Positions 48,301 to 54,300 of a stretch of 64,000 nt of DNA are shown in pieces. Made by a program: the position numbers. Source of the DNA: Escherichia coli (GTDB taxonomy: Bacteria > Pseudomonadota > Gammaproteobacteria > Enterobacterales > Enterobacteriaceae). The stretch lies in NCBI RefSeq assembly GCF_030013205.1, contig NZ_CP122649.1. One strand, written 5' to 3'. Numbering within the stretch: position 1 is the first letter of the stretch; the number at the start of each line of letters is the position of its first letter.

Positions 48301-51300
48301 AGTTGCCATGCGCAGCATTACGCTTGCTGAAGGGTTTGTTGATCTGCTATGCCAGCTTGATCGCCGGTATAAAACTAATGCCTAGCAATTTGTGATGCCA
48401 AAAAAACTGGTACTACGCGGCATTTTTCCCGACTCGAACATGATGAGATATAATGGCTTTTCTCAGGATAATCTCTTCTATTTAAACGACTTTGAGAATG
48501 TCGTTTGCATCTGCTCCAATGCAGCAACACCGCCTGTCGGCAGTGGAATGAACATGTACGATCGGCTTGCTGTCTTACGGAAAACCGATTTCACGGGTGA
48601 CATTACCGACCCGAAGGGCTGGAAGTTCCGATTGTTCGGAAATGGTAACGTCCATATCTCAGTTGAGTGTGAAAGCCTGCATAACGCACTGAATGACCTG
48701 ATTAGCATTTATTTTGCCAACCAGATCCCGGCCAAAGGATAAGAATGATGACTGACAATGTAAATTTGATGAACGGGGATGAACAAACTGCGTCCAGTTT
48801 AAGTGAAGAGACTTCAAAAACGCCCCCTCTAAGCCCCGAGTTACTGAAGAATTCCCCTTACTCGTCAATAGCTAAGGTTAAATATTTCACCGAGATTGAA
48901 CAAATCTGCCTCGATAAGAGCATCAGCACCGAAAACCTCGACCAGTTTTTCAAAGCCCACTGGCTGCGGGATAAAATGGGGGGGTCTTTTGCCCGGGCTC
49001 AGGAGATGCTGGCGGCCTACAAGCAATACGTGGACGAGGTGCCCGAGGAAGCACGCGCGATTGAAATCCCTGACCAGATTAAAGATGCATTCAGTGATTT
49101 TACTGCGTTTATCACCTGGTACTTCCGCTTAAGCTATACGGCTATCCAGAGTGATAGCGTGAAAATTGCGAAGGCAGAAATTACTCAGTTACGGCAGCGG
49201 AATGCTGAAATTCTGGAAGAACTGTCACAGTCGAAAGAACAGGCTACAGTCCTGAATAACGAAAAAGTTAACCTGATTAACCTGCTGGAGCAGCAGCGTG
49301 AACTCTCCAGTAAATTAGAAGATTCACTTCAGGAAGCAGAAGAAACTCTGGCAGGAACTCAAAGTGAATTACAGCATGCCCAAAACGAGATCCAGCTTTT
49401 ACAGCAGACAGTAGGGACACTGAACCAGCAACTGAGTGAGCGCAAACAGGAACTGGCCTCGCAGCAGGAGTATCAGAAGCAGCTGAATGATGAGAATAAA
49501 GCGCAGCAGGTAGAGCTGACAGCCCTCAAAAGCCAGAATGATCACTTACAACGGACCGTGTCTGATTTAAAAGTCAGTGTCAGTCAGCTTGAACAGGACC
49601 TTTCCTCAGTACAGACCCATTCCTCTGAATTGAGCTCATCTTTAGCCGAAAAGGACACGACCCTGACGCTCGTGCGGTCGGAGCTCTCAACAGCTAAAGG
49701 GGAGAATGACCAACTACGAGCTGAAGCACAACGCTTAGCTGATGAGAGCCTGGTTGCCAAAAAAGTGCAAACAGATCAGACAGAAGAGCTTCAACAGCTC
49801 AGGAATCAGATGATTTCCATGGAAGCGACACTCAATGCGGAAAAGACCATTGCCGAGTCTTTACGAGGAACAATCAAGCAGCTTACCGAAGCTATGACCG
49901 GCGCAGTTGCCATCAAACCTAAATCCTCTGGGGCATCAAAACCGCGAAACAAAAAGACGACATAACTGCTCCCGCCAGGAATTTGCAATAGACTTAAATT
50001 CCTGGCGTCCACAGGCTCTTTATCCCGTTCGCAGGAGTTTACGTCCTTCCGACAGCATTAGGCTGATTTTCCCCGAATCACTGATCTCAATAGCATCAAC
50101 CAGGCTAGTGATCCCGCCAACAGCTTGCTGTTGTGAAATAGCTCCCAGTTTGTAGTCATCGAGTACTGCCGCCAAAAACGCCTTCAGTTTAACCTGCTCA
50201 CTCATCGAAAGTATGTACGCCATTTTTAGCCCAATTTTAAGGTTGTGATTCGGGTTAATTTTATCGTCTAGCTTCCGGGAAATGAGGGAGTTCCTGGTAT
50301 TCAGTCTTCTCCGTAGCATCCCAGTGCCACCATCCATAGGCCCCATATTCCTGGTTGTAATACGCCTTCTTAAGTTCCTTTCGCGCAAGATAGGCAGGTG
50401 TCGACATCCCGAAAACTTCCATCGGGAACGGCTTATCACTTCGTGTATCCAGTAAATAAAAATCTGGGAAAACATCGCTCGCACTGGCGTCATACCGCAT
50501 AGGCTTAACATAGTGCCGGTGTTCGGCATCAAGTTTACGGGACACTATCGCTTCGTAGGAGGAGTCCAGAGGTATCCAGTTATCACTCACCAGCATAAGC
50601 ACTATCTGATGAGCTCGTGCAGAGATACCTCTACTGGTCACCGATACGGGAGATGTAAGAGCAAAAACAACAACTTTGCCCCCATTTTTCCAGGCGGCAT
50701 ATTCCAGAGGGAATCGCCGCTTCACGCTATCCCAGTGCCCGTCTGAGTTAAAGAAGGTAAGGGGCATACCGCCGAAGTTACGCATAGGTAGAAACTTCAG
50801 CGGCTTCTCATGCTTTTCTGCGTCATAGCGCGGCAGTACTGATAGCAGCAGCAGTCGTTTGTCGCTCAGTTCCGCCGACGACAGCAGTTGAACCTGCTCA
50901 CTGGCCACTTTGCTTTTAGAGTCCGCCACCCCGATAAAAAGATGGTCGCCAATACATGCTCTACCCGATCTAATCTGCTTTGCGGCTTCCAACATCCGGT
51001 ATCGAACCAGCGAATCATTTCGCTTCCCGGCCATATTCGGATACCAGACATTAAGACCGGCTTCAGTCCACAACAAACTCAGAAGTCCGGAGAGGGTCAT
51101 TGAAGCCTGGCCACCTTCAGGTCGCTGGATTTGGGGCAGGGAAGGAACCTCAGACTTTTCCGGCGGATCTTTCTCCGTCATGCCTATTCCAAGGCGGATT
51201 GACATGGTCCCCTCATTGTTGATGCGTACAACATTGCTGGCATAACCCTTTAACCCTGTATGCCTGGCATCAAGGTCGAAAAACACACACGATGGATCAT

Positions 51301-54300
51301 GCTCAGTGCCTGTATTTGCAGCCTTAATCAGGATGAACGTATCACTGTTTGGTAGTGAGCGGACGTAGAGACGCTTTGCGCCTTTTCCCCGACATCCGCA
51401 GCTGATCACAGATTTCTGCCCGGACGTGTGGTGTGCTTTCTTCAGGGCCGACTGCCATCCCTTTACATACTCATCCTGTGTCTGAAATTCAGCCGAGTAT
51501 CGTTTCGTGTTTGGTTCGTCATCGTAAGCAATAAAAACTGCAAACTTCTGGCCCATGGGACCTCCTGAAATTTAAAAATACTAATAGCCTAGCCATATCA
51601 ATACTTCTTGCGCGTTGTACTCTTCCCTCTCACCCAACTCGGAAAAAAATACGTCTATGTCGCTGGCTACGACGCCATGTTTTGCAAGCTCTTGCAGAGC
51701 TCTCTGTTTTGAAATGGTGAGGTCTTCTGCTGAATCAAAATACGTCATCATTACCTCCTGATGAAGGAGTTGACTGAAGCAGGCCTTTCTCTCCCTGCCC
51801 AGGTTTTTTTCTGTGTAAAAGTTACAATATTAGTGAAATAAACCATTACGTTAACCTGCAAAATCACACAGAAGAATTACTATGATGCCGCTTCAAACTC
51901 TCCCTTGAGACGAGCCGCAACGGCGATCTCAATACGGCTTCGAAGCAAACTGGCCACGGCCGCAAATACGTCGACGATGACCGAATTGCCGAACTGGCGA
52001 TAGGCCTGGGTATCAGAGACTGGAATGCGAAAAGTAACTTTTCCCGGTTGCTCGAATCCCATAAGGCGGGCACATTCTCGCGGGGTTAAACGGCGCGGGC
52101 GCCTTGCCATATTTACAGGATCATTAAAGTCCTTTTCGCCTATGCTGTGATCCCATCCACGGTCTAGCAAAATTTCAGAGCCATCACGATAGTACCGTGC
52201 GCTGAGTGTTCTGCAAACAACTGATTTATCAAGTGGATTTACCAGTCCGAAGCCAAATCCATTACCTTTTGCCTGGTGCTTTTTAGCGTAGTTATAAAGG
52301 TACTCCCAGAGCTTTGGAGAAAGGATGTAACGGCTATCGACCTCAGCGTCCAGCAGCTCCCCAAGGGTTGGCCGTCGTGAAGGATAAAGAGCCGATACAC
52401 CACTTAACGAAAAGCCATCATGGAGCTTCAGATCGCGCCTGAATCCAACCAACACGATACGTTCCCGGTGCTGAGGCCTGAAGTTCTTACCGTCAATTAT
52501 TTTGGGGTCCTTTGATCCGTGAGCATCGCAGTCGGCAACATCGTAGCCAAGTTCATCAAGCGCTTTCATGATGATGCGGAACGTATTTCCCTTATCGTGG
52601 CTCTTCAGATTTTTTACGTTCTCAAGAACGAAAATGGCAGGCTGTTTGGCTCGGATGATCCGGGCGACATCAAAAAAAAGGGTCCCCTGGGTGTCGCATT
52701 CAAAGCCGTGTTTTCGGCCCAAAGAGTTCTTTTTGCTGACACCGGCAATACTGAACGGTTGGCATGGGAAACCTGCGAGCAAAACATCATGGTCTGGGAT
52801 GGATGCATCGATAGAAGCATAGGCCTGGTCATCCGAAACATCGGGAAGATTACTGAGTGTAATGTCCCGGATATCTGAGTTGAAATAGTGCTCAGTCTCG
52901 TCACAGTACCAGTTTGCACTGTATGTCCGGCGGGAGAACTGATTCCATTCGCTTGTAAACACGCATTTCCCGCCAATGGCGTCAAAACCACTCCGGAGGC
53001 CACCGATCCCAGCAAACAAGTCAATAAAACGGAAAAATTTCTGGTCATAGTCTGCTGGGCGTGAGGGGAGCAACGATCGAAGATAATGATATTCTTCCTG
53101 GGTTATTCGACATTCATTAACTGAACCTTTGATCTGGCGAATAAGTGATGCCCTCGACCAGTCGCTGCCGGTTGCAGCATTAAGTTGCGCAGCCAAATCT
53201 TTTACGTCATAGATACTTGCAACCTGCACCAGTAATTTATGGATAGAGGAAGGCGTCTCATCATTAAGCAATGCTGTTATTGCAGGCTCAGTTCTATCGT
53301 TGTACATCCTTACTCCATGAAATGTGATTAATTTAGGACCTCAGACTACCACGCGGTGAAAATTCAATTTTTTGTTAAAGGCCTTTATTTTCATCTCCTG
53401 AATTAAAATTTTTAATCCACTCAAATTGCCTCCGTTAACGGAAAATCGCCGAGTTTCTAATTGGTACAATAAGCGCGTCAAATCACACGACTTATTTGTT
53501 ACTACGAACCATCTAATTCAGGGAGAACGTATGACTCTGTTGAAAAAGTTACTTTTGCCGACATTAATCGTCCTTTTCCCGGCGGCAACTCTGGCTGCCC
53601 AATCGTCATTTGAAGCGAAAGTGGTAAAAATTATCGACGGGGACACAATCACCGCGCTCGATGGTCAGAATACAAGCATCAAAATCCGCTTGTACGGTAT
53701 TGATGCCCCCGAAAGTAAGCAGGCCTTTGGACAAAAGTCTAAACAAGCGTTGAGCGCCGCGATTGCTGCACAGAATATTACGGTAATAGACCACGGACCT
53801 GATATTTACGGCAGGATGCTGGGAACCATTTGGCTTGATGGTTATGACATAAACGCCTCAATGGTAGACAGCGGCTATGCATGGGTATACCGGTTTGACG
53901 GTAATGCCATCGTCCCAAACTATCTGAAATTCGAAGCTTCAGCTCAGAAAGCAGTTAAAGGCCTCTGGGTAGATCCTAATCCCGTTGCCCCCTGGGAGTG
54001 GCGCCAGCAAAACCAGAAACCTCAAAAGACGAAAAGCAGGGGGTGACCGCGATGACAAGACAGCATCCTTTATTGAAAATTGCGCTTAATAGCGATGGAC
54101 ATCTTTCGTGGCCAATTTTACCAGGAGAGACTCACCGCTGCCCAACGTGTCTGCGACACGTTACTACGGGCCCGGATGGGGATTTGGTGCATTCGATGGA
54201 GGAGGGCGGCAACGTCTGCATACCTTCAGCTTCTGTTGTTATTTCAAAGGCAATTATTGAAATGCTCAGCGCAGGCGAACGTCTCTATGTTAATCCAATC

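Follow-up and report, generated by a model that had tools for sequence, protein, structure and literature searches.

A Dcm-type methyltransferase and the predicted nuclease DUF1173 in a putative IncHI plasmid operon that is not a restriction system

We analyzed a 64,000-nucleotide stretch of Escherichia coli DNA (RefSeq assembly GCF_030013205.1, contig NZ_CP122649.1; hereafter the window) at a locus where four minus-strand genes encode a Dcm/M.EcoRII-type DNA cytosine-5 methyltransferase, a protein of 55 amino acids (aa), a 431-aa protein of the DUF1173 family and a protein of 67 aa. The initial annotation raised two possibilities: that the genes after the methyltransferase include an unrecognized restriction or modification-linked defence partner of it, or that the methyltransferase is an orphan protective enzyme with accessory genes. 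The locus is not a hidden restriction system. With fair confidence, we read it as a modular accessory operon of IncHI plasmids that combines an orphan Dcm-type protective methylase, an independent and probably active structure-specific nuclease (DUF1173) and two small proteins.

Four genes at the locus

The locus is known sequence, and its genes are already annotated in plasmid pHCM1 of Salmonella Typhi CT18 but unstudied; no functional study turned up in literature searches on IncHI dcm, DUF1173 and PF06666. Window bases 49900–53500 are 100% identical to pHCM1 (NC_003384.1, 135537–139137), an R27-like IncHI1 plasmid with a MOBH relaxase and MPF-F. The RefSeq record of pHCM1 lists on its minus strand a DNA cytosine methyltransferase, a hypothetical protein of 56 aa, a DUF1173 family protein and a hypothetical protein of 61 aa. 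At an identity of at least 90% the block has matches in 285 IncHI1-type plasmids, of which 271 are conjugative, and 279 of the 285 keep 80% of it or more.

The four open reading frames (ORFs; Table 1) were confirmed from the ORF list and the sequence, and strong AGGAGG ribosome-binding sites are present before both the 55-aa and the 431-aa ORF, as first described. The site at 51561–51566 lies 4 nt before the DUF1173 ATG. The 55-aa ORF has two adjacent ATG codons, and its AGGAGG (51754–51759) is 5 nt from the second and only 2 nt from the first, which makes 55 aa the better choice of start; R27 and IncHI2 records also annotate 55 aa. This ORF had been called missing from the ORF track. It is indeed absent there, but only through a length cut-off, and RefSeq holds it as WP_011011077. 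The last ORF, previously listed as possible, is real and is annotated as 67 aa in R27 and 61 aa in pHCM1. A mechanically called 170-aa ORF (50020–50532) was discounted because it overlaps DUF1173 out of frame. Compared with a Citrobacter plasmid of about 92% identity, synonymous differences exceed non-synonymous ones in all four genes (dcm 60:27, 55-aa 13:6, DUF1173 50:12, 67-aa 10:2), which indicates that all are under purifying selection.

Table 1. Coordinates of the four genes, of features within DUF1173 and of the adjacent divergent gene (window positions)
Feature	Position	Strand	Remarks
Dcm/M.EcoRII-type DNA cytosine-5 methyltransferase	51880–53307	-	475 aa; operon gene 1
55-aa gene	51581–51748	-	gene 2; 56 aa (51581–51751) from upstream ATG; conserved family of small plasmid and phage proteins
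DUF1173 (PF06666) protein	50261–51556	-	431 aa; gene 3
67-aa gene	50020–50223	-	gene 4; end of operon
Putative zinc-binding motif C53-x-C55 ... H86-x3-C90	51287–51400	-	DUF1173 codons 53–90
PD-(D/E)xK (restriction-endonuclease-like) fold domain	50264–50701	-	DUF1173 codons 286–431, C-terminal
Acidic triad of DUF1173	E335 50552–50554; D365 50462–50464; E380 50417–50419	-	
Divergent intergenic region between thermonuclease gene and dcm	53308–53530		223 bp; presumed operon promoter region, from gene layout
Thermonuclease (SNase) family gene	53531–54046	+	divergent from operon; RefSeq annotation

The gap after dcm is 128 bp and the other two are 24 and 37 bp. IncHI2 plasmids keep all four genes in order, with identities to IncHI1 of 81% for DUF1173, 72% for Dcm, 62% for the small gene and 60% for the 67-aa protein. 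IncHI-like contigs with homologues at 52–60% identity have dcm, a 58–59-aa gene and DUF1173 in order within the same wider synteny, and there is a 4-bp overlap of dcm with the small gene in a relative at 52% identity. The spacing, the overlap in relatives and the conserved order suggest that the genes are co-transcribed. Scans of the operon for sigma-70 promoters and terminators and with Rfam gave no match.

The methyltransferase and the DUF1173 protein

The methyltransferase scores 849.3 bits against NCBIfam PRK10458 (NF007772, cut-off 710) and has the Pfam domains DNA_meth_N (PF18284, E-value 7e-13) and DNA_methylase (PF00145, E-value 8e-74). Its best PADLOC model is that of an orphan methyltransferase (704 bits). 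The catalytic and S-adenosylmethionine motifs FAGIGG, PCQ, ENV, QHRER and FGNSV are intact in the translation. The enzyme had been described as collinear with E. coli Dcm and not followed by vsr, and both observations stand: in gapless alignments it shares 65% identity with E. coli Dcm over 449 aa and 67% with M.EcoRII of an IncN plasmid, and no vsr follows the gene at the window locus. The two reference enzymes, which both recognize CCWGG, are 68% identical to each other. All three share the same length and domain order (DNA_meth_N followed by the C5 methyltransferase core), and the gapless alignment includes the target-recognition region. The target of the IncHI enzyme is thus most likely the inner cytosine of CCWGG, judging from its identity to two CCWGG enzymes. 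The settings of the genes differ: chromosomal dcm of E. coli is overlapped by vsr and the M.EcoRII gene faces a convergent EcoRII endonuclease gene, whereas the IncHI methylase gene has neither arrangement.

The window shows slight enrichment of CCWGG and no avoidance: it has 128 sites, where shuffles gave an expectation of 103 ± 9 and never reached 128. Without methylation the plasmid would therefore offer EcoRII many targets, and its protection has to come from methylation. There is a precedent: dcm of the IncC plasmid pKAZ3 gave about 2,700-fold protection against EcoRII in conjugation from a donor without Dcm (Dimitriu et al., 2024; PMC11602122). Like the IncHI gene, it is a Dcm-type methylase gene that lies on a large MOBH conjugative resistance plasmid and lacks a restriction partner, and its expected role is pre-emptive protection (PMC11602122). 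It belongs to another plasmid family, whereas the IncHI gene heads a conserved four-gene operon. Given the identity to CCWGG enzymes and the IncC experiment, gene 1 most likely methylates CCWGG in plasmid and chromosomal DNA of the host alike. On arrival the plasmid would thereby already be protected from EcoRII-family restriction, and it would be immune to killing by such systems. If so, an orphan Dcm-type methylase in the backbone would help IncHI plasmids cross EcoRII-type restriction barriers. IncHI1 plasmids carry multidrug resistance in typhoid, and those of type IncHI2 are common among the large resistance plasmids of Enterobacteriaceae.

The 431-aa protein matches Pfam PF06666 (DUF1173) over its full length (E-value 1.4e-42, model positions 6–384 of 386). 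In pHCM1 it is eight codons shorter than in R27 and the Citrobacter plasmid (431 versus 439 aa, the longer form ending …YNSPESQP) through a premature stop (window 50261–50285); the lost 8-aa tail is poorly conserved across the family. For DUF1173, Laganeckas et al. (2011; PMC3045609) predicted a C-terminal domain related to PD-(D/E)XK, without a conserved signature, and described an N-terminal zinc motif. The window protein agrees with that description in being a full-length member with the N-terminal CxC…H…C motif and a nuclease-like C-terminal region, and differs from it in its active site, described below.

We built an AlphaFold2 model from an alignment of 32 homologues. The full-length model has a predicted local distance difference test score (pLDDT) of 90.5 and a predicted template modelling score of 0.90, and a separate model of residues 286–431 has a pLDDT of 91.4. 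The alpha-beta-beta-beta-alpha-beta core of the PD-(D/E)xK superfamily is present in the C-terminal domain of the model. A check of the 431-aa protein for a nuclease fold had been suggested, and the C-terminal domain proved restriction-endonuclease-like in the model search. Its best matches were RAP (score 7.0), Vsr (6.7), I-Bth0305I (6.7), VRR-Nuc (6.4) and Bax1 (6.1), followed by Hjc (5.6), TnsA (5.5) and Type II enzymes (near 5). The top matches are exclusively restriction-endonuclease-like, a likeness at the level of fold and not of family membership. A Foldseek search of AFDB50 returned only other DUF1173 proteins. Among solved structures, the best sequence match of the full-length profile is Bax1 of A. 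fulgidus, at a marginal E-value of 0.29; the C-terminal profile used by itself gave no match to solved structures.

The Bax1 alignment spans PDF…EVFG…YLARK and pairs D365 and E380 of DUF1173 with D305 and E318 of Bax1. The metal site of Bax1 consists of E275, D305 and E318 and matches the VRR-Nuc active site (PMC7293015). E335 of DUF1173 probably corresponds to E275, since each lies 30 residues before its aspartate (D365 and D305). Among the 162 DUF1173 members closest to the window protein (median identity 30%), E335 is conserved in 98%, D365 in 93% and E380 in 93%; the lysines K351 and K396, located elsewhere in the domain, are conserved in 99% and 93%. The putative zinc ligands C53, C55, H86 and C90 are each conserved in at least 99%. 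Among these members the active site thus looks intact, at variance with the 2011 assessment. Because the C-terminal PD-(D/E)xK fold keeps a Glu-Asp-Glu triad of the Bax1/VRR-Nuc type, DUF1173 is probably a metal-dependent structure-specific DNA endonuclease, with flaps, forks, bubbles or junctions as candidate substrates. The likeness to Bax1 (DUF790) and VRR-Nuc has bounds: the sequence similarity is marginal, the N-terminal and middle domains of DUF1173 are unrelated to theirs and there is no XPB partner. Bax1 serves archaeal nucleotide excision repair, whereas DUF1173 is bacterial and plasmid-borne. The resemblance is one of fold and not an established membership.

Distribution of the genes and weighing of the readings

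A tblastn census of 72,556 plasmids found DUF1173 in 3,352 (about 4.6%), of which 2,452 are conjugative. About 1,410 of the 3,352 are IncHI1 or IncHI2 plasmids and 1,926 carry DUF1173 at less than 60% identity; 1,132 plasmid records carry the window type at 80–90% identity (IncHI2). DUF1173 also falls into 2,046 clusters at 50% identity. A predicted nuclease with an intact acidic triad is thus present in roughly one in twenty sequenced plasmids, including IncHI1, IncHI2 and the Klebsiella IncHI1B resistance and virulence plasmids.

We also scanned one genome per species with an alignment of 18 closer DUF1173 sequences. This gave 57 loci at 29–46% identity, distributed over Pseudomonas, Pantoea, Erwinia, Acetobacteraceae and Massilia. 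In the 54 loci at least 8 kb long, we looked for a C5 methylase within 10 kb of DUF1173 and found one at a single locus; the 55-aa and 67-aa genes were found at none of the 54. Likewise, no methylase is annotated within 5–6 kb on either side of DUF1173 in seven plasmids sampled outside IncHI1 and IncHI2 from the group below 60% identity (two from Klebsiella and one each from Acinetobacter, Burkholderia, Rhizobium, Comamonas and Erwinia). The two Klebsiella plasmids, of MOBH (IncHI1B) type, have DUF1173 divergent from the thermonuclease gene and lack dcm and the 55-aa gene. DUF1173 there occupies the slot that the start of the dcm operon has in IncHI1 and IncHI2, with H-NS, a PLD nuclease, DUF4942 and psiA nearby.

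Since DUF1173 stands without a methylase in many replicons, it cannot be a conventional restriction enzyme and does not generally depend on a cytosine methylase. The proposal of a restriction or defence partner is therefore not supported; it had been offered with the proviso that the 431-aa protein should not occur independently of a methyltransferase, as it does at 53 of the 54 loci. The evidence agrees with the alternative in the initial annotation, that of an orphan protective methylase and accessory genes, and genes 2–4 also occur without the methylase.

The one methylase-bearing locus is a contig of a Pigmentiphaga metagenome-assembled genome (3579–4661), where the methylase lies about 5.3 kb upstream and is 26% identical to the IncHI enzyme. 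Its presence there is probably a coincidence. More generally, the neighbours of DUF1173 are thermonuclease, H-NS, PLD nuclease, PsiA, UmuC, ParA, RepA, resolvase, type IV coupling protein and relaxase genes. UvrD-like helicases adjoin it in 12 of the 54 genome loci, a recurrence that includes 12 Acetobacteraceae loci. Two metagenome contigs (one at 3723–10184) have an AAA ATPase, DUF1173 and a UvrD with a zinc ribbon, with a WYL regulator adjoining. By analogy, this order resembles a helicase–nuclease module of the XPB–Bax1 type. In a sizeable group of Klebsiella pneumoniae plasmids DUF1173 is in two pieces, annotated as two proteins, which suggests that it is dispensable in that lineage.

The two small genes have wide distributions of their own. 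The 55-aa protein has no Pfam, NCBIfam or PADLOC match, and a word-indexed homology search with it returned close relatives only. It matches phrog_25588 (E-value 4e-29), and by tblastn its family occurs in 1,480 plasmids and 35 phages, 32 of the latter being Pectobacterium phages. Ten residues, ending in VLxWLGY, are invariant among the plasmid and phage homologues. Its carriers include conjugative plasmids of Cereibacter and Burkholderia in which both dcm and DUF1173 are absent from the vicinity of the gene. For the 67-aa protein, Pfam, NCBIfam and PADLOC gave no match; tblastn finds its family in 1,835 plasmids, also apart from DUF1173, two examples being an IncFIA/IncR plasmid of Klebsiella, where it adjoins a resolvase gene, and an Aeromonas plasmid, where it follows mazEF. 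Each of the four operon genes therefore has its own, independent distribution.

In Pectobacterium phage Nobby (Autographiviridae), the one phage whose annotation was examined, the homologue of the 55-aa protein (52% identical, 796–954) is encoded at the left end of the genome, by its first forward gene; a second match lies at 3504–3662 (L077). The anti-restriction gene 0.3 of T7 sits at the equivalent genome position. The position in Nobby suggests, by analogy, that this family may have an early host-takeover or anti-defence role. A small protein that is common to plasmids and is the first forward gene of a phage deserves the attention of plasmid biologists. The IncHI2 copy of the 67-aa gene lies 13 bp after DUF1173 (pTB601, 7333–7533) and is unannotated in many RefSeq records.

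Under the modular reading, the operon of the IncHI1/IncHI2 backbone would have been assembled from four independently distributed genes. DUF1173 would act in plasmid DNA processing independently of methylation, and genes 2 and 4 encode real small proteins, each widespread by itself. Five other accounts have to be weighed against this.

It is unlikely, though worth keeping in view, that DUF1173 is instead a methylation-independent nuclease with which the plasmid defends itself against phages or competes with rival plasmids, perhaps together with a helicase, so that the operon would unite anti-restriction and defence. No helicase or NTPase partner accompanies DUF1173 in the IncHI, Klebsiella or Acinetobacter plasmids, and its neighbours are mainly genes of plasmid maintenance and transfer rather than defence islands. 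PADLOC-DB 2.0 gave no significant match of a defence model to the non-methylase genes: the sole match is marginal and covers one domain only (DUF1173 to PDC-S68, E-value 0.003), and the two small proteins have none at all. The splitting of DUF1173 in many Klebsiella plasmids also argues against a defence role.

Some observations count against the modular operon with an active nuclease, and several of them concern the active site. The canonical (D/E)xK lysine is replaced in DUF1173 by phenylalanine or tyrosine (position 382), D365 and E380 are lost in a few divergent members, and the 2011 study found no active-site signature in the family (PMC3045609). These points would suit a catalytically inactive DNA-binding protein, a regulator or architectural factor that merely retains the nuclease fold. 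In the same direction, some databases label members as CopG/Arc/MetJ-type regulators, and RAP domains, the top fold match, are often RNA-binding and not catalytic. On the other side stands the high conservation of E335, D365 and E380, together with K351 and K396, at a median identity of 30%. Bax1, moreover, has a Glu-Asp-Glu triad and no motif lysine either, yet is an active nuclease (PMC7293015). We think an inactive protein rather improbable.

Gene order also weighs against the modular operon. Four genes are kept in order from IncHI1 to IncHI2 and three in more distant relatives, which could be owed to functional coupling instead of descent from a common backbone. Of the four, DUF1173 differs least between IncHI1 and IncHI2, and so is under strong constraint in this setting. 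It could be that DUF1173 is an active nuclease of an uncharacterized type, with its zinc motif and Bax1/VRR-Nuc-like domain, that has a role in plasmid establishment, mobile-element conflict or repair and is coupled in IncHI to the methylase and the 55-aa protein, for instance as a Vsr-like safeguard or an anti-defence module. We give this a low probability.

The position of the operon lends nothing to a role in early establishment. In R27, mobI and the relaxase gene, and hence the origin of transfer, lie at about 104–108 kb and the operon at 141–144 kb. A role as part of the leading region, next to the origin of transfer, is likewise not supported at this distance of about 33 kb, leaving the direction of transfer aside.

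It is very unlikely that DUF1173 replaces Vsr as an endonuclease that nicks T:G mismatches and so limits C-to-T mutation from the plasmid's Dcm-type methylation. The hhalign probability is 1.9% and there is no match to Pfam Vsr (PF03852). DUF1173 lacks the catalytic histidines and zinc site of Vsr, its triad being of the Bax1/VRR-Nuc type; Vsr has 156 aa against 431, and the DUF1173 gene does not overlap dcm. Most DUF1173 replicons, including those of Pseudomonas, Pantoea and Acetobacteraceae, have no C5 methylase nearby. The need for such an enzyme is also unclear, as the usual IncHI hosts already carry chromosomal dcm–vsr: E. coli, shown here, does, and so does Salmonella.

A novel Type II restriction–modification system, in which the Dcm-like enzyme modifies and DUF1173 is the cognate endonuclease specific for CCWGG or another site, is hardly credible: we reject it on the co-occurrence of DUF1173 and methylases in the genome loci and sampled plasmids set out above, including the dcm-free Klebsiella MOBH plasmids with DUF1173 at the equivalent position, and also because a restriction enzyme on its own would be lethal to the host, because DUF1173 has a uniform architecture and conserved sequence across settings with no sign of a change in specificity, because no PADLOC restriction-enzyme model matches it and because Vsr, VRR-Nuc and Bax1 match its fold better than true restriction enzymes do.

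The modular operon with an orphan methylase and an independent nuclease is accordingly the reading we prefer. The locus is real and was correctly described; its restriction interpretation fails, and current understanding is not overturned. What is removed is a tempting false lead, since this pair of a methylase and a nuclease-fold protein is not a restriction system.

Neighbouring genes and minor observations

The divergent layout across the region between dcm and the thermonuclease gene recurs in IncHI2 and in the Klebsiella MOBH plasmids, and the intergenic regions of IncHI1, IncHI2 and Klebsiella plasmids have no significant similarity to one another. A short motif, (G)TGTGATTTGA, occurs upstream of dcm (53308–53530), in the spacer between dcm and the 55-aa gene (51752–51879) and upstream of the Klebsiella-plasmid DUF1173 (5801–5982). 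The matches are 9–10 nt long with E-values of about 0.2–0.8 and may be due to chance.

A DUF4942 gene at 47936–48742 on the plus strand lies upstream of a gene for a 406-aa coiled-coil protein and is convergent on the operon. Its full length aligns at 55% identity with an intact homologue of 267 aa, but a stop codon in frame near 48386 divides it into ORFs of 169 and 116 aa, which makes it a pseudogene in pHCM1.

The thermonuclease gene, a conserved neighbour of the operon or of DUF1173 in MOBH and Acinetobacter plasmids, was found by tblastn at all 11 IncHI-like, Klebsiella and Acinetobacter loci and at none of the 54 other genome loci. The region around the operon is rich in nucleic-acid enzymes and nucleoid proteins (window 45820–46224, 53531–54046 and 55031–55810; L001 5067–7155): an H-NS homologue, the thermonuclease, a PLD-family nuclease, two HNH proteins and a DUF6884 protein. 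The N-terminus of the thermonuclease resembles a signal peptide. In Klebsiella and Acinetobacter plasmids, too, DUF1173 is accompanied by thermonuclease and H-NS.

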